Shown: in pieces, positions 14,180 through 63,417 of the stretch | Layout: every line of letters begins with the position of its first letter | How positions within the stretch are numbered: the stretch's first letter is position 1 | IMG/VR virus record: IMGVR_UViG_3300032132_000001 | Span: 42,573-106,572 of that record | Source of the DNA: a virus | Length of the DNA stretch: 64,000 bases | Reading direction: 5' to 3' (one strand) | Made by a program: the position numbers and the translations under genes | The notes under the pieces: model-generated | What the model saw: only the letters and a program-made list of their open reading frames with translations | What the model was told of the DNA's origin: nothing | Databases searched by the model: none

Positions 14180-14188
14180 CTCATCATC

Positions 14189-16881: not shown

Positions 16882-16894
16882 TGGATTTCTCTTA

Positions 16895-16970: not shown

Positions 16971-16977
16971 TTGACTG

Positions 16978-47136: not shown

Positions 47137-47163
47137 TCGGGTACTGCGGTCGCTAGGGGTCTC

Positions 47164-47523: not shown

Positions 47524-47546
47524 GGTGTACAGTCCTTTCCTTGTAC

Positions 47547-47700: not shown

Positions 47701-47768
47701 AGCTCTCCAGCGCGACAATATATTCCTCACGCGGGGCCCTTCCATATCTTCCTTCGTATTTCAGCCAC

Positions 47769-48062
47769 ATGGAAGCTCGCGGCACACGGTGGATGGTAGA
47801 AGAGGAAAGAGAGGTATTAAGGACCGTACCTTGGAACGAAGACTTGTGCAGCCCAGACTTCAACCCAGCTGGGCTACTGATAAGCATGCATAGGGAGGGA
47901 CATAGGTCTGAATACTTCTTCATAGACCCAGAAACCACAGTCTGGCGGTTAGGAGTATATTACGACGACCCAGGCCAACGTGCATGGCACTGGAAGAAAC
48001 TCTACGTAGTAAACGCACGCTGGCAGAAAAGAATCCGCCAAGACGTCGCAGAGATACTATGA
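47769..48062 (+). CDS. DP-motif small protein family member (LCSPDFNPAGLLISM)
   Basis: ATG 47769 inside track ORF 47541..48062. Confidence 0.5.
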   Translation: MEARGTRWMVEEEREVLRTVPWNEDLCSPDFNPAGLLISMHREGHRSEYFFIDPETTVWRLGVYYDDPGQRAWHWKKLYVVNARWQKRIRQDVAEIL

Positions 48063-48340
48063 GTGTCTACGTCATCAGCAAGCTGGACCCCAACAACCAG
48101 ATGAAAGGGTATACTTCTAGTACGGAAGTCTTAGCAGACCCCGACTTCTCCCCTCAACATTTCGTCGTCTATAATGATGAGGTTGGAAATTACTTCTGGA
48201 TAAACATCAAGTCGCAGAAGATCTGGAAGGCCGATATTTGTTACCTTGCAGATGTGGGATCTGCGTGGAAAAGGTCGACAAAGATTACAGACCCCGAAAA
48301 GAAGAAACAGCTCCTCTCTATCTTCTCTAGAGCGCTATAA
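48059..48340 (+). CDS. DP-motif family member (LADPDFSPQHFVVYND)
   Basis: ATGA overlap with previous gene. Confidence 0.5.
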   Translation: MSVYVISKLDPNNQMKGYTSSTEVLADPDFSPQHFVVYNDEVGNYFWINIKSQKIWKADICYLADVGSAWKRSTKITDPEKKKQLLSIFSRAL

Positions 48341-48351
48341 GTACGTATAAT

Positions 48352-48783
48352 ATGAAGAGAATGATCAAGAAGTTACTGGATTACCTCTCCTCCCTCCTAA
48401 CCCCACCCCCACCAGAACCCGTGGAAGCTCCACAGGAGAAGCCGGGTCCCATCGACTATGTGGTAGAGAACATGGACGAGGACTACGTTGGGGACGACTA
48501 CCTACGACGTCGCGCGGACGCGGCGCTCGCAGCTGCGCTAGACAGACCCATAGTCCGTAGGTCCCCCTACACCCTCCCAAAGTCAGGGCACGGTGCGGCA
48601 ATCCAACAACACCGATGGGATTGGGTCAAGATTGAAGTTGAGTCCAAGACCAACTATTTGATCTTAGAAGGGAAGAAGGATGGGAAGATGGGGTGCCAGA
48701 AGCAACCTCACGTCTCCCATATCCCCGAGCGGCACAAAAAGAAAGGCAGGGAACTAAGGTACGTGCCTGAGAAGAACGAATGA
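48352..48783 (+). CDS. hypothetical protein
   Basis: track ORF. Confidence 0.45.
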   Translation: MKRMIKKLLDYLSSLLTPPPPEPVEAPQEKPGPIDYVVENMDEDYVGDDYLRRRADAALAAALDRPIVRRSPYTLPKSGHGAAIQQHRWDWVKIEVESKTNYLILEGKKDGKMGCQKQPHVSHIPERHKKKGRELRYVPEKNE

Positions 48784-49085
48784 AAATCCTAACAGTCTGT
48801 GAAGGTGGTACAGTCAGAAGCGTGGCGCTGGCTAGAGTGGCGAAGCAGAGGGGACACGACGCAGTACCCCTCTCCTCTATGTGGAATAAGCCAGAGACCT
48901 TCGCAATGCTATCAGAGTGGGCAGAGAAGATACTCTATATCCTCCCCCACCAGCTGGAACTAATACCAGAAGAGCATAGAGAGAAGGCACACTTCGTAGA
49001 GGGAATGGAGAAGGATCCGTGGTGTAACCCACTGAATAAGCAGCTGTTAGAGTTGGTGAAGATGAGATTGGACGAGCTGTTATAA
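48780..49085 (+). CDS. small protein with LMW-phosphatase/ArsC-like P-loop (VCEGGTVRS = CX5R-S) and later DP
   Basis: track ORF; 101 aa, shorter than canonical LMW-PTP. Confidence 0.4.
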   Translation: MKILTVCEGGTVRSVALARVAKQRGHDAVPLSSMWNKPETFAMLSEWAEKILYILPHQLELIPEEHREKAHFVEGMEKDPWCNPLNKQLLELVKMRLDELL

Positions 49086-49100
49086 TCTCAAACCTACCCT

Positions 49101-49400
49101 ATGAACCCAGATGAGATAGCCAAGATCCTCACAGAAGACCCAGACGTCCTGAATGAGATCTCATTCCCAGGTGAGGAACATGATGAATACCAAAGAGGGA
49201 AAGAAGTAGCAGCGGATATGGTACGTCATCTAAAACAGTTGCATATCGACGAGCCTGTCGAATCCACTGTTGAAGAAGATCTTCAAGATAATCTACATAG
49301 AGCAGAAGAAGCAGCCCGTACAGCAGAATTTGAAGAAAAAGAGATGTATTACCGAGGCATAGCGGATTTCATAAAGAACTACTTAGGTCGCACAGAATAA
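49101..49400 (+). CDS. PDEIAKILTEDPDVL-leader family member 1
   Basis: N-terminus MNPDEIAKILTEDPDVLNE. Confidence 0.45.
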   Translation: MNPDEIAKILTEDPDVLNEISFPGEEHDEYQRGKEVAADMVRHLKQLHIDEPVESTVEEDLQDNLHRAEEAARTAEFEEKEMYYRGIADFIKNYLGRTE

Positions 49401-49451
49401 TACCCCTCTTCCCCTTAGCGGGTCCCTTCTCCACCTCCCCTGGGTCCCATC

Positions 49452-49754
49452 GTGCGGTATCTAAACCGCATGAGAAAAACCGCGCTCCTCATCCTGGCAC
49501 TCATCCTAACCGGGTGCATGTCGCCAGTGAAAGCAGAGAGAAACGGGTATATTCATCCAATGGCAGGGTTAGAGCTAAAAGCGCCCTATAGGTTCTCAGA
49601 GATTACACTGCACAATATCGGTCAGGCGGCTGAGCATCATGATATTGGGTGGTTCGTCTGGTGGACCTATGTGGACCTACCCCTAACCTTCGTACAAGAG
49701 ACCGCGCTACTCCCATTCTGGCTCCTGGGTAGGGCGTTTAGGATCATCCCGTAA
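49452..49754 (+). CDS. YceK-like lipoprotein (signal peptide plus LTGC lipobox)
   Basis: paralog of 59984..60244. Confidence 0.5.
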   Translation: MRYLNRMRKTALLILALILTGCMSPVKAERNGYIHPMAGLELKAPYRFSEITLHNIGQAAEHHDIGWFVWWTYVDLPLTFVQETALLPFWLLGRAFRIIP

Positions 49755-50086
49755 TGAAGATACTAAGCTACGACGGCCTGGCGCCACCAGAGAAAGTGAG
49801 ACTCAGGATGGTCTCTATAAAGGGTCAGAACTACGAAGTCCACGAAAACCAAGAAATATGCGACCCAGAATATTCCCCAGACGGCATCGTAATGACAGTA
49901 GAGGATGGTTCTTGGCTTAGTGCTGGGGATGTAGTGTTCTGTTCCTCCTTCATTTGGGAGAGGGAGAGCGGGAAACTCTACAAAGCTAAGATTGTAACTG
50001 GTGGCCATAAGGGTAGTCTGGGGGAAGAACTAACCTGCCCAGAAACTATAGAAGAAGCCAAAGCAATAATAGCTAGAGATTTGTAG
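49754..50086 (+). CDS. DP-motif family member (ICDPEYSPDGIVMTVED)
   Basis: track ORF. Confidence 0.5.
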   Translation: MKILSYDGLAPPEKVRLRMVSIKGQNYEVHENQEICDPEYSPDGIVMTVEDGSWLSAGDVVFCSSFIWERESGKLYKAKIVTGGHKGSLGEELTCPETIEEAKAIIARDL

Positions 50087-50463
50087 TGTACGAAGACTAC
50101 CACCTAATCAATACGCTCAGGAAGCACTGCGGCCATTTACCCCACGATACCTTCCCACGACATGGGAAGTGGATCCTCATCACCGTAGGTAAGTGGAAGA
50201 ATAATGGAGAGTGGGGGAGTGGGAGGAGCGCGGCGGGGCACCCTAGGTTCGAGGAATACGCGCTAGACGCCCTAGAAGTGATAGATCCCAACTTCGATCC
50301 AGACATAATACTAGTACAGATAAATCATGGGGATCAGCCCGCTCACCAGATGAGTAACTTCGTGGTGGACGCTAGGACGATGGAAGTACGGCGTTACCCA
50401 GATGACCTAGTAGACACCGAAACTGCGCAAATAATAAAAGAGCTGTTGGCTAAGCATCTGTAG
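50086..50463 (+). CDS. DP-motif family member (VIDPNFDPDIILVQIN)
   Basis: track ORF. Confidence 0.5.
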   Translation: MYEDYHLINTLRKHCGHLPHDTFPRHGKWILITVGKWKNNGEWGSGRSAAGHPRFEEYALDALEVIDPNFDPDIILVQINHGDQPAHQMSNFVVDARTMEVRRYPDDLVDTETAQIIKELLAKHL

Positions 50464-50487
50464 GGTCCCATCGAGTATGTAACCTAC

Positions 50488-50835
50488 ATGCTCGGAAAAC
50501 AAATCCTACGTGACTTAGCCAACATCAACGGACGCTCCCAGGGTTACGGTGGGTGTCAGAAATGTGAAGACTGCTGGAGTTGGAAGGCAGGTTTCCACAT
50601 AACCTACTGGGAGTGCCCTAACGGGTCAGGTAATGCTAAAGGTGCCTTCCCGGTATGTGAAGAATGCGTTAAGGACATGTCGAACTACGAGCTTCTCAAG
50701 CAGCTACTGGTACACTTCATCAAGGGCAACGCTAGCTTGATCGAGTCGGGGTTAGACCCCAGACCAGTAGAAGAGATCTCAGAGAACCTTACGTTCGCTA
50801 AGCATTGGTTAGATAGGGCGAGACCCGGCAGATGA
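50488..50835 (+). CDS. Cys-rich hypothetical protein
   Basis: track ORF. Confidence 0.45.
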   Translation: MLGKQILRDLANINGRSQGYGGCQKCEDCWSWKAGFHITYWECPNGSGNAKGAFPVCEECVKDMSNYELLKQLLVHFIKGNASLIESGLDPRPVEEISENLTFAKHWLDRARPGR

Positions 50836-51044
50836 ACAAGCGACCATTCTTCATAATCCCCATCCTCCTCTTAGTTCTCTTCCTCCCTCCTTTATTCTTC
50901 CTAGCCGAAATCGGCCATGAGGCACAGACTGCTCCTAGGTGCCCAGAGTGCATGGAGAGAGTAGAGAAGTATGCTAGGAAGTGTCCAGCTTGCTTGTCTA
51001 CCTTCACTAAGCCCACGTCTAGAGAGGAAAGGGAAGGTGGGTAA
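50832..51044 (+). CDS. small membrane protein with C-terminal CPEC...CPAC zinc ribbon
   Basis: track ORF. Confidence 0.45.
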   Translation: MNKRPFFIIPILLLVLFLPPLFFLAEIGHEAQTAPRCPECMERVEKYARKCPACLSTFTKPTSREEREGG

Positions 51045-51465
51045 GTTAGACTTCCTACATTGGGTAGAGAGTAGGGAGCATTGGGTACACCTAGAGAACC
51101 ATCTCCGACGCCAACTGCGGCATAGAGAGGGCCCTAGGAGACATCTTTATGGTGCGGAATATACTCGATATCTTGACGAGATTGACCAGAACTATAAAGA
51201 GCACATCGCCCGACCTGACTTCAAGCCCGACGCTATTATGTTGTCGGAGAAAGTGAGGCTTGAGGGTAGGCTCTACACCACAGACAAGTATTGGGTGTGG
51301 TGCCAGAAGATCGATAGAGTGTTCGACGGGTGGATCTACGGGGACAACGGCGACCACGACATTGTCCGCAAATACCCGGCGCCGTATGAGAAAGGCGTCT
51401 TCGTAGATTGGACATGGGCCGAGGATGAGGAACACTACAAGAACCTCATTTCCTCCCTGCTATAG
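51037..51465 (+). CDS. DP-motif family member (IARPDFKPDAIMLSEKV)
   Basis: GTG 51037 in frame of track ORF 50971..51465. Confidence 0.4.
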   Translation: MGKLDFLHWVESREHWVHLENHLRRQLRHREGPRRHLYGAEYTRYLDEIDQNYKEHIARPDFKPDAIMLSEKVRLEGRLYTTDKYWVWCQKIDRVFDGWIYGDNGDHDIVRKYPAPYEKGVFVDWTWAEDEEHYKNLISSLL

Positions 51466-51477
51466 CAAACGTATAGT

Positions 51478-51732
51478 ATGGATCCAGATAAAATAGCAGA
51501 ATTGATCAGTGATGATCCCGACGTTTTGCAAGAAAGCGATGATATTGCTCGATTGGAAGGCGATCTAGATTATGAGATTAGGCGATTAGCCTGGATGAAA
51601 AAGCAGTTGAAGGAATTTTTGGTATCGGGTGAAACTACATCTCTACTAAAATTCCCCGGCGCAGAAAAAGCCAAGAAAGCTATTGCGCTAACACAAAAGA
51701 AAATTGCCGATCTAAAGAGCCGGCTACTCTAG
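51478..51732 (+). CDS. PDEIAKILTEDPDVL-leader family member 2 (MDPDKIAELISDDPDVLQE)
   Basis: track ORF. Confidence 0.45.
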   Translation: MDPDKIAELISDDPDVLQESDDIARLEGDLDYEIRRLAWMKKQLKEFLVSGETTSLLKFPGAEKAKKAIALTQKKIADLKSRLL

Positions 51733-51994
51733 CAACAGAATATACCCGTCAAACTCACAAGCCAGCGGGGGCTTCCTAATGAACACCGCCCTCTCCCCGA
51801 CACTCACCCTCATTTCTGCCAAGTTGTAAGACTTGTGCCCGATAGAAGAGGCGGGATCTAGCGGCGGTACTTTTTGCCAGACCTGGACGATGCAGTTGTA
51901 GGCATCAATCCCTAGTTTGTAGCAGGGAATAATGATAACTCCCCCACCCTTGATCCAGTCTTCTTTGGTGATGTGAATTTTCGTCATACTATAT

Positions 51995-52339
51995 CTACAG
52001 ACCGGTCTGCTCTCTCGCCTTCAGTATTAGGTCGAGGAGATCCTCGTTCCGTTCATCATTGAATGTGTCTACTACTCCAATCCAGTAACCAGTCCAAAAC
52101 TTCTTCTTTGATTTATCGAGTATTTTCACTAGCCAACTTAGGATATCGTCTTCAGTGGCTTCGCCTTGCTCCAGCCACTTTAGAGCCTTCCTACCACCAT
52201 CCTTGCCTTTATCCTGACCTCGGCTTAGTTCGTCATGTATGGCATCATCCTCTAACGGCGACCCACCGCTTTTTCTTATCTCGCATAGTATATCTGGATG
52301 TTCTGTGATCAGTGAGGCAACTAGGTCTGGGATGTCCAT
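51995..52339 (-). CDS. PDEIAKILTEDPDVL-leader family member on minus strand (MDIPDLVASLITEHPDILCE)
   Basis: track ORF. Confidence 0.45.
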   Translation of the reverse strand: MDIPDLVASLITEHPDILCEIRKSGGSPLEDDAIHDELSRGQDKGKDGGRKALKWLEQGEATEDDILSWLVKILDKSKKKFWTGYWIGVVDTFNDERNEDLLDLILKAREQTGL

Positions 52340-52400
52340 ACTCTATGTTTGGCACAGTCACACTTTCCCGATACGTCCTCGCCCCCGGTATCTGAGAAAC

Positions 52401-52823
52401 ATGAAAGATGAACACGCAGTCGTCAAGGCCCATGCCTTTCTCGAATCGTTTGGGATTACCATAGGGTATAAGTTCAACGATCCCGATGATGGGGCAAGTG
52501 TTTTGAGCGGGATCGGGGTTACCGGTAAACTCATCTGCCACCCGGTAGGTGAACCAGATATGCAATCCTCCTGGGTTATGTCCCCGGAAGCATTTGCCGG
52601 GAGATATTTCAAGAGCAGCCTAGGAACAGAAGAATTCCAGAATGCCCTCCTCTTGATCTCGTCCACTTATCCCCTGGATACTCTTACCAGACGTATGGGT
52701 CTGTTGACCGGGGAGGAGAGGGGGAGAATTATATTTCTCGAAAAACAGATATTCGAAAACCTAGAGGCGATTGATGGAATCATCTCCTCTAGAGCGGAGG
52801 CCGAAAACGACCCATGGCCATAG
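52401..52823 (+). CDS. hypothetical protein
   Basis: ATG 52401 in track ORF 52239..52823. Confidence 0.4.
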   Translation: MKDEHAVVKAHAFLESFGITIGYKFNDPDDGASVLSGIGVTGKLICHPVGEPDMQSSWVMSPEAFAGRYFKSSLGTEEFQNALLLISSTYPLDTLTRRMGLLTGEERGRIIFLEKQIFENLEAIDGIISSRAEAENDPWP

Positions 52824-53170
52824 CCCAAAGAGACCATCTTTGCATGGGAGAAAGAGTGTCACAATTACTTCTATGGGGATGGCGGATGGGCAGTAGAGAT
52901 GTTATGACCATAGAGGAAGGTCGTATCAACCAATCAGACCCCAGTTTCAACCCAGATGGTATAGTGCTATACGAGAGCGGTGGCGACAATGCCACCTATG
53001 GATTCATGAACTACTATTTCCTTTGCAAAAAGACCGATGACGTATATGCATTGGAAAAATGGGGTAGCAATTTGGAAGAGGGCGAATATTATTACCACAT
53101 GTTAGACAAATCTCGTCTACCCGACGAGCGCGTGGAAGAAGTCAGAGAAATCATATCAGCATTGCTATGA
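52814..53170 (+). CDS. DP-motif family member (QSDPSFNPDGIVLYESG)
   Basis: track ORF. Confidence 0.5.
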   Translation: MAIAQRDHLCMGERVSQLLLWGWRMGSRDVMTIEEGRINQSDPSFNPDGIVLYESGGDNATYGFMNYYFLCKKTDDVYALEKWGSNLEEGEYYYHMLDKSRLPDERVEEVREIISALL

Positions 53171-53502
53171 GTGGAAAATTCCAGTGGGGTTTCTTGTACA
53201 AGATAGAAGAGGGCGATTACGATCTTGTCGGGGTCCCATTCACAGCACAAGAGCATCACGACCCCTCTTTCAACCCCACCGGTATCATAGTTACTATGAT
53301 AGTGCACGAACGCAGAGACTTAGGAGCCGTGGGAAGAGAGCCTAAGCGTTTCTACGTGCACACGGACAGCCAGAGAGTATTGGAAGCACACATGTATGGT
53401 GGTAAGATCGGCGGAAACGAATACCACTACAAGCTCACCGGTCTAGAACTATTAGATGAGGACCGCCAGGGTATCTTAGACATTATTCAGGATCTCTTGT
53501 AA
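53167..53502 (+). CDS. DP-motif family member (HHDPSFNPTGIIVTMIV)
   Basis: track ORF. Confidence 0.5.
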   Translation: MSGKFQWGFLYKIEEGDYDLVGVPFTAQEHHDPSFNPTGIIVTMIVHERRDLGAVGREPKRFYVHTDSQRVLEAHMYGGKIGGNEYHYKLTGLELLDEDRQGILDIIQDLL

Positions 53503-53810
53503 TGCCAGTACTAATGTGGGCTAAGCGGGGAAACCGGGGCGACTACATCAACACAATAGAGATGGACGACCCCGATTGTTTCGATCCGGACTTCAAGCCC
53601 GATGGTATAGTAGTAGAGAAGTGCATCAAGCTTCCTAACAGCAATCAAGTGATCACTACCTATTTCTTCGTGGACGCGGAAACGGAAGAGATGTGGAGAA
53701 CTAAGAAGTTCAAGACCTGCAAAGGGTCTACTTGTTTCCACATCCTCCATCAAGAAGAGGACAGGTATCTGAAGATGGTCGCAATGCGTAAGATCAGGAG
53801 GAATCTATGA
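53502..53810 (+). CDS. DP-motif family member (DPDCFDPDFKPDGIVVEK)
   Basis: track ORF. Confidence 0.5.
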   Translation: MPVLMWAKRGNRGDYINTIEMDDPDCFDPDFKPDGIVVEKCIKLPNSNQVITTYFFVDAETEEMWRTKKFKTCKGSTCFHILHQEEDRYLKMVAMRKIRRNL

Positions 53811-54166
53811 TGGCCGAGTACGTCAGTCCTGGTGTTTTCACCCAGGAGATAGACTTCTCTGTTCAACCTAGTGCTGATGATATTATCTTCTGGGCTAGTA
53901 AAGTTTCCGATGGGGTGGTCATCTGCAACAATCCTGGAGACCCAGACTATGAGCCAGATTATATCCTATTTCAGTTAGGGTTTACTAATTTCATAGGTCT
54001 CAGGAAAGATGTTCTCTATAATGGTACTCAGCAAGCTCATTGGACTTTAGATATAGCAACAGGGAAATTATACAATAACTGGACCTTCCACAGAGGGGAA
54101 TGGGTAGAAGAAACTGACCCATATCGGATTGAGTTCATCATGAAAGCTATCGCAGAAGCCATATGA
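53807..54166 (+). CDS. DP-motif family member (PGDPDYEPDYILFQLG)
   Basis: track ORF. Confidence 0.5.
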   Translation: MMAEYVSPGVFTQEIDFSVQPSADDIIFWASKVSDGVVICNNPGDPDYEPDYILFQLGFTNFIGLRKDVLYNGTQQAHWTLDIATGKLYNNWTFHRGEWVEETDPYRIEFIMKAIAEAI

Positions 54167-54561
54167 ATAATCTACCAATCCAAATAGATCTCATCACTGC
54201 CGTCAAGGTGTACTTTCAGGATATGGGGTATACTTGTCGGGATCTTACTGATGGTGAAGCCGGCTGGCCTGAACCTAAATCGTTTACTATAGAAGCATGG
54301 AGAAGCGATTTGGATGTCCTGTTTTGGGATTATAGAGAGCGAAGAGGGTTAATAACCGCAGCTCAAGACCCGTCTGGATTCAGTAAAGGGTCTCCCCATC
54401 TCAAGATAGCGATGAAAGCTTGGCTCATTGTCCAAGTACGTAAACAAGAAGCATACGTAATGAAGAATAGATATGGACCACCCCATGGGGTGTACCAATG
54501 TGCTGATCCGGAATTCTTCGATCAGCTGAACGAATTAGTTGTTAGCACTATGGACCGGTAA
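54163..54561 (+). CDS. hypothetical protein
   Basis: track ORF. Confidence 0.45.
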   Translation: MNNLPIQIDLITAVKVYFQDMGYTCRDLTDGEAGWPEPKSFTIEAWRSDLDVLFWDYRERRGLITAAQDPSGFSKGSPHLKIAMKAWLIVQVRKQEAYVMKNRYGPPHGVYQCADPEFFDQLNELVVSTMDR

Positions 54562-54562
54562 A

Positions 54563-55216
54563 ATGAACAAACACGACGGGCAGATCTGGTTTACTTCAGA
54601 TCCGCATTTCAATCACGGAAATATCATCAAGTACTCTATGCGCACCCCCTTCATGAACAAGGCGGAGCTAGAGGTGATGACTACTGGTACCAAAGAGGAG
54701 CAGAAAAAGCTCCGTATCAGCAGAGAGTCAATCAATCTGATGAACACTACCATGATCGACAACATCAACTCTGTCGTCGATGCTGGTGACCACCTAGTAT
54801 GTCTAGGTGACTGGGTAATGGGTAAGAATGTTGCGCAGACCGCTAAAGAGTTCCGCGACAGGATCCACTGTAAGCGGATCGATCTTATCTGGGGCAACCA
54901 TGATAAGCATGTAATCGGCAACAACTTCGATCGGACTTCCCATCTCCACCGCTATAAGTGGGAGTGGAATGGTGAGGTGATCCGCCTAGTGGCTTGCCAC
55001 TATGCTATGCGGATATGGGATGGGTCCCATCGTGGTGTACTACACCTATATGGCCATTCTCACGGTGCACTGAAGGAAGATCTCCACGCGCGCTCGTTCG
55101 ATTGTGGTGTAGACAGCTGGGGCTACATGCCGATCAACACGGATACTATCCTCAAAAAGATGGCGACTAAGACGTTCAAGCCCATTGACCATCATGGGAA
55201 GCGCGACCAAAAATAG
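54563..55216 (+). CDS. metallophosphoesterase (second calcineurin-like phosphoesterase in window)
   Basis: DPHFNHGN...GDHLVCLGDW...GNHD...GHSHG. Confidence 0.65.
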   Translation: MNKHDGQIWFTSDPHFNHGNIIKYSMRTPFMNKAELEVMTTGTKEEQKKLRISRESINLMNTTMIDNINSVVDAGDHLVCLGDWVMGKNVAQTAKEFRDRIHCKRIDLIWGNHDKHVIGNNFDRTSHLHRYKWEWNGEVIRLVACHYAMRIWDGSHRGVLHLYGHSHGALKEDLHARSFDCGVDSWGYMPINTDTILKKMATKTFKPIDHHGKRDQK

Positions 55217-55219
55217 TGT

Positions 55220-56080
55220 ATGACACCTGAAGAACTGGCGAAGCTCCTCACCGACGACCCTGACGTCCTCGCTGAGGCTGGAAAGAAAGGCAGATCAGCT
55301 CACCGCCGCGCTAGAAGGAAGAAGGAACGTCGGCGCGCGAAGAGACAAGAGCGTGAGATGCAATACCAAGTTGATCGCCCTCGTAGCGGTAGGAAAGTAC
55401 CCCGCTCCCCAGCTAAAAAGGAGCTAAGGGGTATTGAGCGCTCTGCTCGCCGTGAATTACGCCGCGCTGACGAGCCCGCAGCTGACACTGAAAACATTGA
55501 AGCTACTAAGTTCGCTGAACTTACTCGTGACTTCAAGATTATGAGTGCCAGCGAGCTAAATCAAGAGCATAGTCACATCCAGGGATTCATAGACGACCTT
55601 ACAAGCGACATGGAAACTGGCGATGTAAGTCAAGCGATAGGTGCTGCGGAACTAAGGGCGGCATATAAGGCCGCAAGACTTGCTACTCAACTTCGGGACA
55701 GGAAAACGCCAGAATACGAAGCAGAACTTAACAAGCAACGCAGAGAGAACCCACCAGACATGGCTCCTGCTGGGTCCCAGAAATGGCGTGGAAGACCATC
55801 TATTGACCCTGAATTCCAGGATTGGGATCCGGAAGATAGGTTCAATTACGTCAACCGATATAAGACCGACCAACAAGTAAAGAAGAGGAGCGGTGAGTCT
55901 GTTCGCGGTGACGGCTACGAGCGCAGGGAACCTGTGATGGTAGATGATGAGGGGGAGTGGGTAGAAGGCGAGTACGTCGAGTACGATGATCGGTACGACA
56001 AACCACACCTAATCAAGATGACCCCGCAAGCAGAGCCGGAACCTGAGCCAGATAGTCCACTTGAGCTTGAGCCAGAATAA
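55220..56080 (+). CDS. PDEIAKILTEDPDVL-leader family member 3 with long basic-then-acidic extension
   Basis: MTPEELAKLLTDDPDVLAE. Confidence 0.45.
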   Translation: MTPEELAKLLTDDPDVLAEAGKKGRSAHRRARRKKERRRAKRQEREMQYQVDRPRSGRKVPRSPAKKELRGIERSARRELRRADEPAADTENIEATKFAELTRDFKIMSASELNQEHSHIQGFIDDLTSDMETGDVSQAIGAAELRAAYKAARLATQLRDRKTPEYEAELNKQRRENPPDMAPAGSQKWRGRPSIDPEFQDWDPEDRFNYVNRYKTDQQVKKRSGESVRGDGYERREPVMVDDEGEWVEGEYVEYDDRYDKPHLIKMTPQAEPEPEPDSPLELEPE

Positions 56081-56388
56081 TGAGAAAGAGCGTAATCGTT
56101 GCGAGACTTCTCGATGCCATCTACGGTATAGGTAATTGGGTAGATGAGCTAGAAGAGTATGGTCTAGACAGAAAGCAGATGCACTACGCCTATACTCAAC
56201 AGCAGTCTCTACGTGGGCGTCATAGTAGAGAACTACGTGCACTTCGTTCCAAACCTACCTCTGCACGTACTCGACGCAAGATCCGGATGATCGAAGACAA
56301 GCTAAAGGGCTACATAGATAAGCCTAATCCGAATCCTAAGACTCTTGAGATTGCCAAGCAGCAAATCAAGAATCTGCTCGCCTCCTAA
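56080..56388 (+). CDS. hypothetical basic protein
   Basis: track ORF. Confidence 0.4.
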   Translation: MRKSVIVARLLDAIYGIGNWVDELEEYGLDRKQMHYAYTQQQSLRGRHSRELRALRSKPTSARTRRKIRMIEDKLKGYIDKPNPNPKTLEIAKQQIKNLLAS

Positions 56389-56500
56389 GCATGAGTCATG
56401 TTCGATCCCACCCCTGGAAACTGCCAACGCTGCAAAGCGTCTGTGAAAGACACTTGGACTGAGCTGTACATATTTATATCTACCAAGGGTGGCAAGATAG

Positions 56501-56812
56501 ATGACCCCGGAAACATCTGCAAAAAGTGCGTCGGAGAAGTCCGAGAAGAAAGAGCCAACGCAGATTAGAGTTGGTTGTTACAGCGTACGATACCACATAC
56601 CACCTTCAGGGTATATGTCCCTCGATCTGGACGTGTTCACGGACGATCCAAAGGTGTGGTTGAAGGGCGCTAGGATGCTCTGCTCTTCGGAAGAGGGTTT
56701 CCAATGCTGTGGAGAGGCCACTTGTTGGGTTTGTTTAGGGCAACCTAAACTGCCAGATCACGGTTTGTTGCATGGTCGCACATTTACCATCCAAGCCAGT
56801 AAGAAAAAATAA
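56501..56812 (+). CDS. Cys-containing hypothetical protein
   Basis: track ORF. Confidence 0.4.
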   Translation: MTPETSAKSASEKSEKKEPTQIRVGCYSVRYHIPPSGYMSLDLDVFTDDPKVWLKGARMLCSSEEGFQCCGEATCWVCLGQPKLPDHGLLHGRTFTIQASKKK

Positions 56813-56816
56813 TTAT

Positions 56817-57074
56817 GTGAAATATGTAGAGCGACTCTTAAGTGAAGTGTTCGACGCCAAATCGATCGCTCGCATGCGCTCCCAAATTGATAGAAACCTA
56901 GAAACCTACGCCGAAGACGAGTATATCCAACCGCTCGTCGCCTATCTTGGCAGAGCTAGGGACGGCGATCTTTGCCTCACTGACGATGACAACAAAGTAG
57001 CAGCCCACGCTCTAGAGCTTTTATTCGCTCTGGCTGTTATAAATGCATATGATCGCGGGAACTGGAGCTTGTAA
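56817..57074 (+). CDS. hypothetical protein
   Basis: GTG 56817 after stop of previous gene; no clear RBS. Confidence 0.3.
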   Translation: MKYVERLLSEVFDAKSIARMRSQIDRNLETYAEDEYIQPLVAYLGRARDGDLCLTDDDNKVAAHALELLFALAVINAYDRGNWSL

Positions 57075-57242
57075 TAGCCCGCTAGTATTTCAAGGGCATG
57101 AAAACCCAAATCGCCTGGTTCGTTGGACTCTCACTCGCCGCATTTATACTGATGAGCTATGCCAGGAGCTTAGTATATATCGCAGGCGTGATCGCTATCC
57201 TCGGTGTAAGCCTTTGGGTGCTGGACAAAGTGGGAGGAAGCA

Positions 57243-57557
57243 TTGTATCCAAAAGATCCAAATAAGGGCGACCGGTTCGACGAAGTATGGAAAATCGTAC
57301 AAGAATCTGGCATGCATTGCCAGGTCGTTGATAGTCCAACCTTCACTACTGCTGTAGACCCTCACAACCCTGAAGCTGGAAATGTAACACTTGCCAATCA
57401 TACCACCAGGTACGTTGGGGGTGGCGCATATTCTAGGATGCGTACTTTCTTGAGTGAGATAAAAGAGAAAGGCGCTACTGCAGTCTACCTGTACAAAGCC
57501 TGGTACGACGACGAAGGTCCTGGAACCGTTTGGGTCAGATGGTGCTACAAGAAATGA
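57243..57557 (+). CDS. hypothetical protein
   Basis: track ORF. Confidence 0.4.
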   Translation: MYPKDPNKGDRFDEVWKIVQESGMHCQVVDSPTFTTAVDPHNPEAGNVTLANHTTRYVGGGAYSRMRTFLSEIKEKGATAVYLYKAWYDDEGPGTVWVRWCYKK

Positions 57558-57871
57558 AACAAAGAGTTGGTGTCCGGTGGATGAAGAGGGACGAAACCAA
57601 CTATACTGTGTTTGCGCAGCTTACCGAAGAAGAGCTTGCAGACCCAGACTGTGAGCCAGATGCTGCTCACGTCACCTTGCCCGTCATGGGTATCCTTGAA
57701 TACTTCATTGTGGTAATGGGAGAGAATGCTCCTATCTTCCGCACTGGAGCAGTGGCACCGCCTATGGGCTGTGCTGAATCCAACATTGTCTATGCCGGTG
57801 TGCAAATAGACCAAAAAGGAGATGCTGGTTTCTACAAATTCGTAATGGACAACTTCGGGAAGCTACTATGA
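57530..57871 (+). CDS. DP-motif family member (LADPDCEPDAAHVTLPV)
   Basis: track ORF. Confidence 0.45.
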   Translation: MGQMVLQEMKQRVGVRWMKRDETNYTVFAQLTEEELADPDCEPDAAHVTLPVMGILEYFIVVMGENAPIFRTGAVAPPMGCAESNIVYAGVQIDQKGDAGFYKFVMDNFGKLL

Positions 57872-58176
57872 CTGGCACTTTCACGACCATTGAGCTTCCA
57901 GAAGACCCCCATGTCACACCTCTCCCAATCGCCCTTCTGAAGCGTGTTGGTGGTCAGTATAGGGAGGTTCTAGAAGAGGAAGCTGGCGACCCTGACTTCA
58001 ATCCAGTTGCCATCCTATATGGGACTGGCCAAATCATGTTCCTAGATGACGAATCGGTGTGGGAAGCCCACTACGAAGATAGGAATCATGATGGCACACA
58101 CAACTGGTCTATTCGCAGGAGAATAGATCCGCCACTCGATGCTGCTATCAGAGCCTACATCAAGAAATCGCTATGA
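57868..58176 (+). CDS. DP-motif family member (AGDPDFNPVAILYGTG)
   Basis: track ORF. Confidence 0.5.
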   Translation: MTGTFTTIELPEDPHVTPLPIALLKRVGGQYREVLEEEAGDPDFNPVAILYGTGQIMFLDDESVWEAHYEDRNHDGTHNWSIRRRIDPPLDAAIRAYIKKSL

Positions 58177-58637
58177 ACAAAGGGACTATCCAAGGTAAGC
58201 TCAAGCTCTATAAGGACCCACTGCTCCCAGATCAGAAAATCCTTATGAGCTTCAAGGGCAAGTCTGTCATGCCCGCTGGATATTTCTACGCTCCCTACCT
58301 AACCAAGTATGCACCAATGAGCGACCCAATAAAGATCGGCCACGCCTGGTGGCGTATCATATGCTTCCTAACCCTTGACAGATCTGAGTACCACTCTAGA
58401 CGATACCTCGTCCTGGATGGTGAGACACACCATCCAGATTATTCCCCACGCGGGATAGTACTAGAGAAATCCAGCGGGGATGGCGTTGCTAGATGTGAAT
58501 ATGTGATAGATTTCCACTTGGAGAATGCCTATCACGCCGGGACCACTTGGACCAAACGAAACCAAAAGGTCTATTACCCTCGGGCCGAAGCTGTGCAGCC
58601 AGAATTGGTCTTCCACGCCCTGAGCGTGCTTCTGTGA
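58173..58637 (+). CDS. DP-motif family member (HHPDYSPRGIVLEKSS)
   Basis: track ORF. Confidence 0.5.
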   Translation: MNKGTIQGKLKLYKDPLLPDQKILMSFKGKSVMPAGYFYAPYLTKYAPMSDPIKIGHAWWRIICFLTLDRSEYHSRRYLVLDGETHHPDYSPRGIVLEKSSGDGVARCEYVIDFHLENAYHAGTTWTKRNQKVYYPRAEAVQPELVFHALSVLL

Positions 58638-58891
58638 GCCTCATCCACGCGTTCGGTATCGATGATGGCGAGCTAGACCACATGACGCCACAACAAAGGT
58701 TCGTCCTTGGTGTTGAATGGGGCAGGGTGTACGAGTTAGCGAAGACCAGAGCACCAATAGATGAATTAATCCACTCCGAAAACGAGCATCGTGTCGTCCA
58801 AATGCTCAAAGATGAAGGTTACAATCCAGTTGCTAGAATGATCCACGACGACTGGATCGTTCTACAAGCGGACCCACCATATGATCTATAA
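58634..58891 (+). CDS. hypothetical protein
   Basis: GTG 58634 (alternative ATG 58682). Confidence 0.35.
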   Translation: MSLIHAFGIDDGELDHMTPQQRFVLGVEWGRVYELAKTRAPIDELIHSENEHRVVQMLKDEGYNPVARMIHDDWIVLQADPPYDL

Positions 58892-59117
58892 ACTGGAGTT
58901 CATGGATACTGCGCACGGCCTTTGGTGCGCTCCTTTGTGGCTTATGTGCGAGTGCACAAAAGAGGATGTCACAAAGATGTGGGATAAAGTCTGCCTTGAA
59001 TGGTATACTAAGAAGGGCGGAGATACCGACGTCATAGACAGAGTGAAAGCTCTAGGCTATAACGTCCAAGAAACTTGCCCCTTCATCTACGAAGAAGTCC
59101 GCTCACTTATAGACTAA
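58881..59117 (+). CDS. Cys-rich small hypothetical protein
   Basis: track ORF. Confidence 0.4.
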   Translation: MIYKLEFMDTAHGLWCAPLWLMCECTKEDVTKMWDKVCLEWYTKKGGDTDVIDRVKALGYNVQETCPFIYEEVRSLID

Positions 59118-59383
59118 TGATACTTGGGTTTATCAGGTTCGTTTGTGACCCACACGATCTGTCTCCCGTTAGGGAAATTGTATTATTAGAAGATGCGTGC
59201 GATCCTGATTTCAACCCGGACATGATAATAATTGATTCACAGAACACTAAGTATGTGTTCGATTTAGATAGAGAATGTTTCTTTCCGTACAATTGTCTGT
59301 CAGGAAAAATAGACTGGGAAAGAAGGATCCCAGACAACTGGGTCCATGTTAGATTGATGCGGTGTCTAAAAGAGAACCTATGA
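59075..59383 (+). CDS. DP-motif family member (ACDPDFNPDMIIIDSQ)
   Basis: track ORF. Confidence 0.5.
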   Translation: MPLHLRRSPLTYRLMILGFIRFVCDPHDLSPVREIVLLEDACDPDFNPDMIIIDSQNTKYVFDLDRECFFPYNCLSGKIDWERRIPDNWVHVRLMRCLKENL

Positions 59384-59655
59384 TCATCGGATACGTAGAT
59401 CACAACCCGGATTACCCATATAGTAGTATAACCCCCTATCTGTTCACTTCGATAGAAGAAGGGGCTAATCCGAATTACGATCCTACTTTTATTGTGATCG
59501 AGTATCTTATGGATTATTTTTTCTATCATACGAAAGAAGATCGCTTCTATAGGGGTCGGTTCACCAAAACGAAGAACCCACATGAACCGATAGATGTGAT
59601 GAACTATGGGGCGTTCGTTTATCGATTACGTGAGGCGTTAATGGCCCACATCTAA
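59362..59655 (+). CDS. DP-motif family member (GANPNYDPTFIVIEYL)
   Basis: track ORF. Confidence 0.5.
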   Translation: MSKREPMIIGYVDHNPDYPYSSITPYLFTSIEEGANPNYDPTFIVIEYLMDYFFYHTKEDRFYRGRFTKTKNPHEPIDVMNYGAFVYRLREALMAHI

Positions 59656-59662
59656 ATAGGAT

Positions 59663-59971
59663 GTGGGCATACCTGATCGCATAGGGTGGTACGGGCGTCT
59701 CCGTTCGGAGAAGTGTAGACCGTACCCGCTTTCTACTGATAACCTCTGTGACCCCGACTGCATCATCACTATGATGCACTTCGAATATAGACGCCAACTA
59801 TATTGTGTAGATGTCCGTCCCGACTATGTTGGGAAAGATCGCTCCAGCCGATTCGGTTCTATCTTCAAATTGGTCCCCACATCCGACTGTCTCCATCGGC
59901 CTATGATGGAGACTGTGACCAACAAAATAGAAGAAGTACAAGTACGGGATTTCATCTTAGCATATCTCTAG
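59663..59971 (+). CDS. DP-motif family member, divergent (NLCDPDCIITMMHFEY)
   Basis: track ORF. Confidence 0.4.
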   Translation: MGIPDRIGWYGRLRSEKCRPYPLSTDNLCDPDCIITMMHFEYRRQLYCVDVRPDYVGKDRSSRFGSIFKLVPTSDCLHRPMMETVTNKIEEVQVRDFILAYL

Positions 59972-59983
59972 AGTAGCTAAGAT

Positions 59984-60244
59984 ATGAAACACCTACTCTT
60001 GATCCTGCTAGCTTTTACTATCGCAGGTTGCGGAACCCTCGCGTCACAGCAAGAAGGGAACTTCGGACCCTATTCTGGAGTCACCCAGGATGCTAAACAG
60101 CTGGGAGAACTCGTAAGCTCCCCCAGCTGTTGGGATCGAATCCTTGGTACCTTCTGTGCATGGGTCGATATGCCTATGTCCTTTGCTGTGGATACTCTTT
60201 TCCTACCAGTAAGCCTATGGGGTTATTGTAGTAGGAGGTGTTGA
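59984..60244 (+). CDS. YceK-like lipoprotein (IAGC lipobox)
   Basis: paralog of 49452..49754. Confidence 0.5.
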   Translation: MKHLLLILLAFTIAGCGTLASQQEGNFGPYSGVTQDAKQLGELVSSPSCWDRILGTFCAWVDMPMSFAVDTLFLPVSLWGYCSRRC

Positions 60245-60626
60245 TAATGAAGATTCCCACCAAGGTACTTGGTGTAGAAATGTTCCAGAAGCTCATAGCT
60301 CCTCCTATCCCAGGTGAGAACATTGCTTTAGCTCTCCCTTTGCGATATGAAGACCTAGACAAACTGCGGAAAGACGGATATTTCCTATTCGTCCGGAGTC
60401 CAAGAAATGCACGATAGCATGTTGCACCAAACCAACGACGAAGAAGTCCAAGCACAACCAAGCTGGCTTTGGGCAGATGATCTGCAAGTGAAAGGACCAC
60501 CGCCTGCCCAATCTATCTTGCGTCCTTTCCCTGGTATAGATGTCACATTCCACGGCCCGAACCCGAAGCCAAATTGGTGGTGGCGCATGTGGCAATATCT
60601 CTTGCTAGGTTGGGTGTGGGAGGATA

Positions 60627-60854
60627 GTGATGTACCGCCTGTGTGAATTCTGGAGCCACTTCCCTGAGTACCAGCTGACACCGATTGGGAAGATGTATAA
60701 TTCCAGAGAGACAGCGATCCAAGCCTTAATTCAGTTTAGGATGGGTGGCAACAGAAAGCCGATTATGCTCTGTGACGAATGCCTTTATCCTGTCAACAGT
60801 AGAGCTAAAAGAGTGATATCCAAACATGATGATTGGGACTGGCTAGATGGATAA
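60627..60854 (+). CDS. hypothetical protein
   Basis: track ORF. Confidence 0.4.
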   Translation: MMYRLCEFWSHFPEYQLTPIGKMYNSRETAIQALIQFRMGGNRKPIMLCDECLYPVNSRAKRVISKHDDWDWLDG

Positions 60855-61290
60855 CTTAAATTGCAACTCTTGCAAAGCTCAAGGTACCACCGTTATCAAT
60901 GGGAAAGTAGTCCACATAAACCCTGAAGACGCGGTACTTGCATTAGCTGTGATCAAGAAGGTAGATGCAGATGGGGTAAAAGGGGTTCGTATAGTACATC
61001 ATTCAGTACACCCCACTGGCCCACGCAGGCTGAATAGAGCAGTCTGCAGCCCAAATGATCGTCATGACGAATATGGTGTGGACCATGATTACGTTCTAGA
61101 AAATCCCAATTTTAATCCTGATTTCTTCGCGTTCCGTTACCAAAGTAAGCTATACCTATTCAAGGTAGACGATGAGCGCATGTTTACTGCTCATTTCTCC
61201 AATGTTTGGAATCAGGGATACAGGGTGGAGTCGGAGTTGTTCGGAGCCAGACGAGAGAATATGATCGAGGTATTTGGCAAGCTTTTATAA
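60847..61290 (+). CDS. DP-motif family member (LENPNFNPDFFAFRYQ)
   Basis: track ORF. Confidence 0.5.
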   Translation: MDNLNCNSCKAQGTTVINGKVVHINPEDAVLALAVIKKVDADGVKGVRIVHHSVHPTGPRRLNRAVCSPNDRHDEYGVDHDYVLENPNFNPDFFAFRYQSKLYLFKVDDERMFTAHFSNVWNQGYRVESELFGARRENMIEVFGKLL

Positions 61291-61636
61291 AATCTACAGT
61301 ATGACAGCTAAGGAAGCTTGGATGAGAAGGCGTACTCGACCAGCAAAAAGAAAGAGGAAAAAGGCCAGAAATGGGCCTAAAATAGATGGTTATGTCTGGG
61401 CGAAGAAAGGCCATGCTGATCGTTGGACGCAAGACCGCCGAGAAGAAGATCAGTGTGAACCATCCTTCAAACCAGATGGTATATTAGTACAAATTGATCG
61501 CGCCATTTTCCTATATGATGTAAAGGATGATCTCATCTTCCGAATGAAACGTCGATCCTATTGGTACTACAAGATTGCAATGGCTACCATAACCCAAAAT
61601 AAAGTTGTCCGGAATAAGATCAAAGAACATCTCTAA
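61274..61636 (+). CDS. DP-motif family member (QCEPSFKPDGILVQID)
   Basis: track ORF. Confidence 0.5.
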   Translation: MASFYKIYSMTAKEAWMRRRTRPAKRKRKKARNGPKIDGYVWAKKGHADRWTQDRREEDQCEPSFKPDGILVQIDRAIFLYDVKDDLIFRMKRRSYWYYKIAMATITQNKVVRNKIKEHL

Positions 61637-61663
61637 GGTAGATAATCTGGAGGTGTTCAAAAA

Positions 61664-61894
61664 ATGGTAGTTGAAATAACAATCGACATCGTAGCAGAAC
61701 AACTGTTCGACAAAGACTGTGAGGAAAACGTCCCTTGCATGGAATTCAAGTATTGGATGTATTACTATGGTGGCATTCCGTATCGTATGGTCCCAGAGAA
61801 ACTAAAGAAGCTATACCGTAGAGAAGCGATCCAATTAATCAAGATAGCACCGAAAGCCAGTTGGCCAGACTCCATGCTGAGATCAACGCGCTAG
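61664..61894 (+). CDS. hypothetical protein
   Basis: track ORF. Confidence 0.4.
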   Translation: MVVEITIDIVAEQLFDKDCEENVPCMEFKYWMYYYGGIPYRMVPEKLKKLYRREAIQLIKIAPKASWPDSMLRSTR

Positions 61895-62211
61895 ATGTCA
61901 TTTGGATCGATACAGATCCGCCGTATCTCATGTACATGATCTATTTTGGCCATCTTGAAGGGGACGAAGACCTTCTTCGCGTCCTCTCCAAAGAGGAAAT
62001 TTCAGATCCAACCTGCCAGATCGAAGGCATAGGATTCTCTGTTGGTGGATCTGACTATGTATATGTGGAAAAGGCAGACAAGATCCTAAAAGCGGTGCCT
62101 TTGGCGGAGCCAGGCGAAAAAAACGGGTGGCGTCCAGGTCTTACTCTGAAAGAAATAGAAGACACCGACGAAATGGTGCGCGCAGAAACGATGCTTCAAG
62201 ATTATCTATGA
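61861..62211 (+). CDS. DP-motif family member, divergent (ISDPTCQIEGIGFSVG)
   Basis: track ORF. Confidence 0.4.
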   Translation: MARLHAEINALDVIWIDTDPPYLMYMIYFGHLEGDEDLLRVLSKEEISDPTCQIEGIGFSVGGSDYVYVEKADKILKAVPLAEPGEKNGWRPGLTLKEIEDTDEMVRAETMLQDYL

Positions 62212-62549
62212 AACCAGAGATGAAGAAACCTAAGAAGGCAGAGTACACCTTCTTGTTCATGAAAAAGACCTTAGCTCATTGGGAAAATGATTCGAGAGAT
62301 CATCACGACCCAGGCTTTAATCCTGAAGGGGTCCTGATCATTGAGATAATTAAGGACTATGCGCTGGAGAAAGATCGGAGCGTTTTCCATGAATTAGTAA
62401 GAAACCAATACTACATATACAATCTCGATAAGGATACGCTAAAAGCTGCCTATCGTTACCGCCATGACGTAAGCAAGTACACAGAAGGCATCGAATTCCA
62501 CGGGTGGCAAAAAGAGTGTATTTTGACCGGTTTCCGAAAGATCCTGTGA
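62208..62549 (+). CDS. DP-motif family member (HHDPGFNPEGVLIIEI)
   Basis: ATG 62208, ATGA overlap. Confidence 0.5.
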   Translation: MKPEMKKPKKAEYTFLFMKKTLAHWENDSRDHHDPGFNPEGVLIIEIIKDYALEKDRSVFHELVRNQYYIYNLDKDTLKAAYRYRHDVSKYTEGIEFHGWQKECILTGFRKIL

Positions 62550-62866
62550 ACAATCCGATCAAGTGGTTGGCTTCAGATCCAACCGAAGAGGGCAAGTATA
62601 AATTGCTCTCAGATAAAGAATTGTTTGAACCCGGATGTCAACCGGAAGCGGCGTTTGTCTATTTCGACGCTGGAGAGCTTGGGGAAACTGACCCTGAGCT
62701 TCGTCGCGCTCGGATGCAGTTTATAATCACTCTAGACCCATGCCAGGTTTACCATAGCTATCTCAGCGGTGGTGAAAACACTAAGCACTACTACTTCCTA
62801 GGTCCGCCCCTCTCCTATGGGCCCGCTCGCAGCCTCATCCTCGGGAAGTTCGGGAACGCTATTTAG
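62546..62866 (+). CDS. DP-motif family member (LFEPGCQPEAAFVYFD)
   Basis: GTGA overlap start at 62546. Confidence 0.4.
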   Translation: MNNPIKWLASDPTEEGKYKLLSDKELFEPGCQPEAAFVYFDAGELGETDPELRRARMQFIITLDPCQVYHSYLSGGENTKHYYFLGPPLSYGPARSLILGKFGNAI

Positions 62867-63061
62867 CCTTCCCCACCTTGTACTATTCCATGCTCTCTCA
62901 TGGAAATAGTACAGAACCATCTTGGTTAGGGAATCTAAGATCCCCACTGTAAGCGCCACTGATATCTCAAAGGTGACGCAAAACGCCAAGAGAACCGTAG
63001 TGAATAGGGCGAATATGCGCCAGGTGATCGCTTTCGTTACGCTGCGAGCTTTGCTGTCCAT
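62798..63061 (-). CDS. DUF2061-like small membrane protein
   Basis: KAITWRIFALFTTVLLAF...MVLYYFHERAWN pattern. Confidence 0.45.
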   Translation of the reverse strand: MDSKARSVTKAITWRIFALFTTVLLAFCVTFEISVALTVGILDSLTKMVLYYFHERAWNSTRWGRLNSVPELPEDEAASGPIGEGRT

Positions 63062-63078
63062 AACGTAGGTTTGGACAG

Positions 63079-63417
63079 CTAGAGTAGCTTCGAAAAAGTC
63101 TCGAACACCCTCTTCTTGGTTGCGCGAGCACTCTTCCGCCTTACACGCTTCCAGCAGACCTCCTCAAGTGGGACCTCTGGGAACATGCGCCCTTGCCAGA
63201 TATGGACCTCTTCATTATCGGAGGTCAGGGGAACTACGGAGTAGACGGTCATGCTTTCCGGGTGGAACAGAAAGTAGCCGCCTCCCTGCAGGTACATGAC
63301 AATAGCGTGCACCTGAAAGTTTGGGTCACCCAACTCATCTGCAGGCACTACATTGTAAATGCGCCCTGGGAACTTCTTACTTCCCCGACGACAATATCCA
63401 ATAATAGAGTCTCTCAT
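63079..63417 (-). CDS. DP-motif family member on minus strand (LGDPNFQVHAIVMYLQ)
   Basis: track ORF. Confidence 0.45.
   Translation of the reverse strand: MRDSIIGYCRRGSKKFPGRIYNVVPADELGDPNFQVHAIVMYLQGGGYFLFHPESMTVYSVVPLTSDNEEVHIWQGRMFPEVPLEEVCWKRVRRKSARATKKRVFETFSKLL

Follow-up and report, generated by a model that had tools for sequence, protein, structure and literature searches.

Within a 64,000-nucleotide stretch of the IMG/VR virus record IMGVR_UViG_3300032132_000001 (positions 42,573 to 106,572; hereafter, the window), 21 open reading frames (ORFs) located at 47.8-63.4 kb are genuine genes whose products share one homologous soluble domain of ~85-105 amino acids (aa) that had not been described before. 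The source is an uncultured megaphage, represented by a 397,419-bp contig in JGI, ENA, and Logan (run SRR9663116). It is an open question why the genomes of huge phages, with hundreds of genes of unknown function, have grown to such sizes. In the present phage, one family with a confident predicted fold makes up about half of the genes of a 16-kb block. The pattern of conservation is typical of a binding scaffold, and we tentatively favor the reading that the proteins form a battery of stoichiometric binders of differing intracellular targets, most plausibly in host defense or takeover.

Homology and predicted fold of the family

An ORF list and a six-frame motif scan revealed 21 motif-bearing ORFs of 85-164 aa; 20 are encoded by the plus strand, and the one at 63079-63417 is encoded by the minus strand. 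All contained the motif [D/E/N/S/R/H]-P-x-[F/Y/C]-x-[P/I/V]-x-x-[I/L/V/M/F/A], followed by hydrophobic strands and a C-terminal helix with L or I at its end. When a strict regular expression was applied to six-frame translations, 17 matches were obtained in 47769-63417 versus one in the remaining 47.8 kb of the window, and residue-shuffled translations of the block gave a mean of 0.25 and a maximum of three matches (500 shuffles). A first-pass annotation of this DNA had listed at least 21 such genes; all 21 were present where it placed them, the motif was far more frequent than expected from shuffling, and the six motifs that it quoted occurred verbatim in m13, m06, m11, m19, m16, and m17 (the members are designated m01 to m21). 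It had also described a hydrophobic C-terminus often ending in LL. The hydrophobic end was borne out, with a final L in 18 members and I in three, but LL ended only seven of the 21.

We trained a hidden Markov model (HMM) on each set of 20 members and searched 544 six-frame ORFs of the window as background. The omitted member was the best non-training match in 21 of 21 cases (E 1.6e-12 to 4.2e-4). With the full HMM, all members scored E <= 4e-10 and the next-best ORF of the window scored E 0.037. Pairwise identity between the paralogues was about 10-27%, and all-against-all BLASTP at E < 0.01 joined 16 members in one component and paired m10 with m20, leaving m09, m15, and m18 as singletons. 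Thus the members are homologous, the motif is not a product of chance, and the earlier view of them as highly diverged paralogues was correct.

AlphaFold2 predicted for m08 (predicted local distance difference test [pLDDT] 92.5, predicted template modeling [pTM] score 0.81) an N-terminal beta-hairpin, a short acidic helix, a DPxFxPDG loop, a four-strand antiparallel meander, and a C-terminal amphipathic helix reaching the stop codon. In this model, strands 1 and 2 comprised residues 2-4 and 10-13, the short helix residues 19-22, the DPDFKPDG loop residues 23-30, strands 3 to 6 residues 30-38, 45-53, 59-66, and 72-79, and the C-terminal helix residues 83-96. In the model of m20 (pLDDT 92.2, pTM 0.82), the elements followed one another in the same order, and a helix was inserted between strands 3 and 4. 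The common fold that the first-pass annotation had proposed to examine was therefore predicted for two distant members, both modeled on the same 21-sequence family alignment.

The most conserved columns were P24 (100%), P28 (86%), and D23 (67%). Hydrophobic residues occupied the positions of F26, I31, V33, F50, V52, M59, A89, I93, and L97 (terminal) in 100% of the members, and those of W60 and F51 in 95%; judged from the alignment, these strand and helix positions probably form the core of the fold. The entropy of the remaining (surface) columns was near 3 bits. Gaps and insertions were found mostly at alignment columns 40-64 and 91-156, corresponding to the beta3-beta4 loop and the segment from beta5 to the helix, and the length of the beta4-beta5 turn was fixed across members. 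Semi-conserved acidic residues flanked the DP loop (E at columns 25-26; D at 29, 31, and 35). The isoelectric points ranged from 4.3 to 9.5, the grand average of hydropathy was negative in all members, and inspection by eye revealed no signal peptide or transmembrane segment in them. No catalytic-looking or polar constellation was shared among the conserved columns of the 21 members, suggesting a non-enzymatic scaffold. We rejected a DxDxDG (EF-hand-like) calcium loop because the residue at a would-be ligand position is Lys in m05, m08, and m17; this interpretation was also contradicted by the conservation of D at column 35 (only 48%) and G at column 36 (only 43%).

Relatives and duplication history

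When all members were scanned against the curated libraries Pfam-A, PHROGs v4, NCBIfam, and PADLOC, no match was obtained at or near the curated thresholds. The best matches were isolated and involved single members (Pfam E 0.048, PHROG E 0.0018, NCBIfam E 0.0021), and no library family was matched by more than two members. Pfam matched none of 20 further sequences, which were neighboring ORFs or extended members at full length, and a profile search of PDB sequences returned only noise. The INPHARED phages contained no match for a 9.6-kb stretch of the window (megablast) or for m08 (tblastn), and the RNA ligase of the window was less than 60% identical to that of any isolate (34-37% for the best among the matches listed). 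These results indicate that the phage has no close cultured relative. All of these searches agreed with the first-pass annotation, which had not recognized the motif from any described phage family, and a search of the literature for comparable phage paralogue arrays found nothing specific. The family is without a detectable sequence or structural relative in the libraries searched.

When 1.84 billion representative proteins were searched exhaustively with HMMER, 26 matches were obtained at E <= 1e-3, namely 18 proteins of the window itself, four small relatives (P0021, P0022, P0023, and P0026), and four long repeat proteins. The small relatives were encoded by short metagenomic contigs with guanine-plus-cytosine (GC) contents of 35-53%, one from an ENA assembly (L003) and three from JGI sample 3300009514 (L004, L005, and L006). 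The relatives are multi-copy as well: L005 (6.6 kb) possesses five clear and two weaker candidates, and L004 possesses two. Word-index searches gained only P0022 and P0028, and apart from a few related phage fragments no relatives were detectable among 15 billion public proteins. When IMG/VR was scanned with a degenerate DNA motif, 70 loci with one match each were obtained; the top-scoring ORFs were long, came from many contigs, and had only DPQFQPDGI in common, and none scored as a member. The neighboring phosphoesterase, used as a lead to more arrays, retrieved only a 192-kb phage (48% identity) without the family, and no further members were found in the 7.3 kb past the end of the window (contig L002).

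Contig L005 was syntenic with the window at 54.1-58.6 kb, where the non-family neighbors were 35, 73, 33, 65, and 63% identical. The family orthologues were ~70% (m11), 35% (m12), and 26-28% (m09) identical; the order of members differed, and some members of L005 had no counterpart in the window.

The first-pass annotation had proposed repeated duplication, of which the paralogy was upheld and ongoing duplication was not. In 45.5-64 kb, DNA-level repeats were confined to the motif codons, and the closest paralogues are not neighbors on the map (permutation p = 0.11), indicating that the duplications are old. We therefore rejected a recently amplified tandem array ("genomic accordion"), in which copies would be similar at the DNA level and best-hit partners nearer than random. 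We also rejected a target of a diversity-generating retroelement because 45.5-64 kb contains no long DNA repeats and no reverse transcriptase was detected among 23 window proteins scanned, a set that left most of the minus-strand half outside the scan.

Gene arrangement, members, and neighboring genes

The family accounts for 20 of the 42 plus-strand genes of the 16-kb block, in nine clusters of one to four genes with ~22 unrelated small ORFs interspersed. The tandem array of the first-pass annotation was accordingly confirmed as a clustering of 21 members in the block but not as an uninterrupted array, because unrelated ORFans part the nine clusters. Its descriptions of a lower-GC block and of stop-start overlaps were accurate: GC was 0.46-0.50, compared with 0.55-0.61 just upstream, and ATGA/GTGA was found at 13 and TAATG/TAGTG at six of the 41 plus-strand junctions. 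Nearly all of the 42 co-oriented small genes are without a Pfam match and many start and stop codons overlap by 4 nt or 1 nt; the genes are arranged as translationally coupled mini-operons. Dominance of a co-oriented, coupled ORFan block by one family is as would be expected for an accessory or early region. Neither sigma-70-like sites nor T4-late-like promoter motifs were enriched in the block; a single late-like motif, TATAAATA, was found in the window, on the wrong strand.

The members are given here with their motif sequences and leave-one-out E values; all except m21 are on the plus strand. The first, m01 (47793-48062; 89 aa from the ATG at 47793; CSPDFNPAGLLI; E 2.8e-7), shares an ATGA overlap with m02 (48059-48340; ADPDFSPQHFVV; E 1.5e-9). 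The gene calls listed for the Logan contig do not include m01, but its 89-aa product is public as P0012, and it is a clear member by score. Further along are m03 (49754-50086; CDPEYSPDGIVM; E 3.6e-8), m04 with a 65-aa N-terminal extension (50086-50463; IDPNFDPDIILV; E 2.2e-5), and m05 with a long N-terminal extension (50971-51465; ARPDFKPDAIML; E 3e-6), for which public calls start at 51037. They are followed by m06 (52844-53170; SDPSFNPDGIVL; E 1.1e-10), m07 (53167-53502; HDPSFNPTGIIV; E 1.6e-12), m08, the first member modeled (53502-53810; FDPDFKPDGIVV; E 1.5e-10), and m09, whose positional orthologue in L005 is divergent (53807-54166; GDPDYEPDYILF; E 2.1e-4).

The next group comprises m10, which forms a sub-group with m20 (57554-57871; ADPDCEPDAAHV; E 3.3e-6), m11, whose L005 orthologue is P0021 (57868-58176; GDPDFNPVAILY; E 5.7e-5), and m12, with an N-terminal gp23 fragment (58173-58637; HHPDYSPRGIVL; E 4.2e-4). 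Members m13 (59117-59383; CDPDFNPDMIII; E 1.4e-7) and m14 (59380-59655; ANPNYDPTFIVI; E 1.3e-7) precede the weakest one, m15 (59663-59971; E 2.8e-4), which has the degenerate motif CDPDCIITMMHF (DPDCIIT), relies on an uncertain GTG start that a public gene call does not use, and may be decaying. An 85-aa N-terminal extension is found in m16 (60847-61290; ENPNFNPDFFAF; E 1.1e-5) and a very basic N-terminal tail, RRRTRPAKRKRKKARNGPK, in m17 (61322-61636; CEPSFKPDGILV; E 6.4e-10). The second Pro is missing from m18 (61930-62211; SDPTCQIEGIGF; E 7.5e-5), which is followed by m19 (62208-62549; HDPGFNPEGVLI; E 1.5e-5), the divergent m20, the second member modeled (62546-62866; FEPGCQPEAAFV; E 3.3e-5; identical in a 395-kb JGI contig), and m21, the sole minus-strand member (63079-63417; GDPNFQVHAIVM; E 7.4e-9). 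Outside the block, the minus-strand ORF at 3839-4126 (EDLSNPNTQLNCIRLAL ... FIAQRL) may be a remote 22nd member according to its end-to-end alignment to the family HMM; it is a borderline candidate, not an established one (E 0.037 with the full HMM and 0.0023 with an enlarged HMM). This ORF adjoins a tRNA-Arg gene, and the neighboring ORF at 3345-3968 (minus strand) exhibited a faint partial HMM match (E 0.21) and may be remotely related to the family too.

Residues 4-52 of m12 aligned to residues 415-464 of the T4 major capsid protein gp23 (35% identity, E 7e-7, BLASTP), and its N-terminus matched Pfam Gp23 (PF07068; E 2.3e-8; score 34.3, cut-off 24.4). The match covered positions 283-323 of the profile (41 of 376), indicating a fragment fused to a family domain, and we rejected m12 as a full-length HK97-fold capsid protein. 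The likeness to gp23 was confined to the N-terminus of m12, and the family core was unrelated to gp23 (hhalign probability 0.7%). Between m12 and its L005 orthologue, the gp23 fragment was 57% identical and the attached family domain 29%; thus, the capsid-like piece seems to be the more constrained part.

The window also encodes ten transfer RNAs (tRNAs), a tRNA nucleotidyltransferase, an RNA ligase, and a Thg1-like enzyme. The identifiable neighbors of the block are tRNA genes, tRNA-processing enzymes, and a phosphoesterase, and no structural gene is present in or near it. At 54563-55216 (plus strand), the block encodes a metallophosphoesterase (PHROG 547, E 1.6e-38), to which its L005 counterpart is 73% identical. 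A well-formed tRNA at 39267-39342 (minus strand; ARAGORN label Pyl; Rfam tRNA 72.6 bits) has the anticodon CTA, that of an amber suppressor. We rejected stop-codon recoding in the block because TAG ends six of the 21 family genes directly past the conserved C-terminus, which indicates the standard code; any read-through of TAG would apply elsewhere in the genome.

The block also contains a second family of small paralogues, with four members of 84-286 aa at 49101-49400, 51478-51732, and 55220-56080 (plus strand) and 51995-52339 (minus strand). They start with M-x-PD(E/K)IA(K/E)(I/L)L(T/S)(D/E)DPDVL-x-E, diverge completely thereafter, and have no Pfam match. Two small plus-strand genes (49452-49754 and 59984-60244) encode lipoprotein-like products with a signal peptide, a lipobox Cys, and the tail D-(L/M)-P-(L/M)-(T/S)-F ... 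L-(L/F)-(L/P). One of them has a weak precomputed match to DUF1375 (YceK-like), a sequence resemblance that hints at a Gram-negative host. The small protein encoded at 48780-49085 (plus strand) has no Pfam match and contains a signature, C-x5-R-S (VCEGGTVRS), that recalls low-molecular-weight phosphatases or ArsC. Four exact copies of the 11-mer GGGTCCCATCG are present on the plus strand of the block (48444, 49442, 50463, and 55022; ~0.03 expected by chance), two of them just upstream of a gene start. The coding strand switches at ~45500-47800, a GC-rich, gene-poor stretch with the minimum of cumulative GC skew at ~46 kb, and a hairpin at 47106-47138 (minus strand; 15-bp stem and T-run) ends the minus-strand unit; this stretch may act as a divergent control region or as a replication landmark. 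Approximately 4-7 kb past the end of the window, precomputed Pfam matches on L002 identify a patatin-like phospholipase (14072-14761, minus strand) and a caspase-like Peptidase_C14 protein (16587-17504, plus strand).

Candidate functions and comparison with known systems

The combination of a conserved core with a near-fully diverged surface and two diverged loop regions favors a battery of binders with distinct targets. This reading is possible rather than probable, and we infer all of its functional steps. Each paralogue would bind a different partner stoichiometrically via its variable loops and surface, and the set would act in the infected cell as inhibitors or modulators of host proteins and possibly of competitor-phage proteins. 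Retention of the old expansion would be explained if the copies hold distinct specificities. Judged from the alignment and the models, the family appears to be a new lineage-restricted scaffold that diversified into many binders; from the context only, its role is most plausibly host takeover or anti-defense.

Several observations weigh against this reading. No member resembled a known anti-defense, immunity, or takeover protein (e.g., AcrIF13). The element with the highest conservation is an Asp/Glu-rich loop, which could be a common functional site for a partner or a metal instead of a purely structural turn; this would favor an adaptor or common-target model over one in which each copy has its own target. 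Because m08 and m20 were modeled from a common input alignment, their models indicate compatibility with a common fold and are no independent proof of it. Synonymous sites were saturated in the comparison with L005, the only syntenic relative (pS 0.69-0.86), and between paralogues, so that positive selection, part of the original proposal, was not measurable. Further, the non-family gene at 54163 was 35-37% identical to its L005 counterpart, suggesting that quick evolution is not specific to the family.

A two-ended adaptor is unlikely. Its conserved end (the acidic helix and DPxFxPDG loop, the fixed beta4-beta5 turn, and possibly the invariant C-terminal L/I) would dock one common partner (for example, a protease, a polymerase, or a phage machine), and its variable end or N-terminal extensions would recruit cargo, as in the expanded substrate-adaptor families of large eukaryotic viruses. 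The gathering of the most conserved polar positions at the loop, the fixed turn, the terminal L or I of every member, and the heterogeneous N-terminal extensions (the gp23 fragment of m12, the basic tail of m17, and the long extensions of m04, m05, and m16) are consistent with such a design. However, hydrophobic residues are found throughout at the F/Y of the motif and at A89, I93, and L97 of the helix, the latter three with i, i+4, i+8 spacing, which suggests packing in the core and not a docking tag exposed at the surface. Conservation of the Asp positions is only 48-67%, and no candidate common partner was identifiable in the window. We regard as improbable a combined reading, in which a combinatorial arsenal would be built on a mini-fold new to solved and viral predicted structures, maybe derived from a single NHL/YWTD blade. 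In that case the acidic DP-loop end would bind one common partner, the hypervariable end and N-terminal add-ons would bind different host immune sensors or effectors, and m12 would be a decoy or bait for capsid-sensing immunity or rival capsid assembly. The capsid fragment of m12, of a T4-type major capsid protein, also raises the possibility that the members are virion-associated, as internal head or ejection proteins or capsid-binding accessory proteins, and giant phages such as phiKZ package paralogous internal proteins. This explanation is very unlikely: the fragment is found in only one of the 21 members, the N-termini are unrelated and share no targeting or cleavage sequence, the block has no structural gene in or near it, and the one late-promoter-like motif of the window is on the wrong strand.

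Less probable again are single beta-propeller blades of the NHL/YWTD type that assemble as homo- or hetero-oligomers into a ring, for example, a lectin-like or scaffold particle. The family profile retrieved an NHL-repeat protein (P0013) and a YWTD/low-density lipoprotein (LDL)-receptor-B protein (P0015) from the 1.84e9 sequences. The members resemble these blades in the antiparallel meander and in the pattern P-x-G-I-x-V / (Y/F)-hydrophobic-hydrophobic-D / x-K-hydrophobic-(Y/W)-R with blade-like spacing, and hhalign against blade alignments gave P about 1.5e-4 and a probability of 48-52%. However, individual repeats of P0013 and P0015 scored 1-9 bits, which is not significant, and the whole-sequence E values sum many repeats, several of them near-identical; no member matched Pfam NHL or Ldl_recept_b at E <= 1. 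Each protein consists of one unit, with an added N-terminal hairpin and C-terminal helix, and several blades closing a ring in one chain were not found. The monomers were predicted confidently (pTM 0.81-0.82), so that no oligomer is needed to explain the model. We consider the blade resemblance a lead on ancestry, not membership. The least credible explanation is neutral debris, in which the products of an old burst of duplication would now be drifting and have little or no function. Very low pairwise identity, the absence of recent duplication, and the degenerate m15 are in line with decay, but the reading frames are intact in 21 of 21 members, each of which is recognized by the profile of the others. 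Further, two distant members gave high-confidence models, orthologues are kept in related phages (m11 at ~70% identity), and dense translational coupling is maintained.

The 21 natural variants of one fold provide a compact test set that could serve in screens for new anti-defense or host-takeover activities and in studies of how specificity diversifies on one small scaffold. If the weak blade resemblance is real, the family bears on the interconversion of repeat folds and single-unit domains.

Large eukaryotic DNA viruses possess multigene families, such as MGF110, MGF360, and MGF505 of African swine fever virus (ASFV) and those of the poxvirus "genomic accordion". The phage family is similar to them in that a very large viral genome contains many divergent small paralogues grouped in an accessory region, copy content varies between related genomes, and a role in host interaction is presumed. 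In contrast, the sequences and the fold are unrelated, and the present virus infects bacteria. Accordion-like expansion has been raised as a general idea for large phages (PMC13359090); the duplications described here are ancient and without DNA-level repeats and are thus not an active accordion. The expansion as a phenomenon resembles known viral multigene families, and the protein family itself was previously undescribed.

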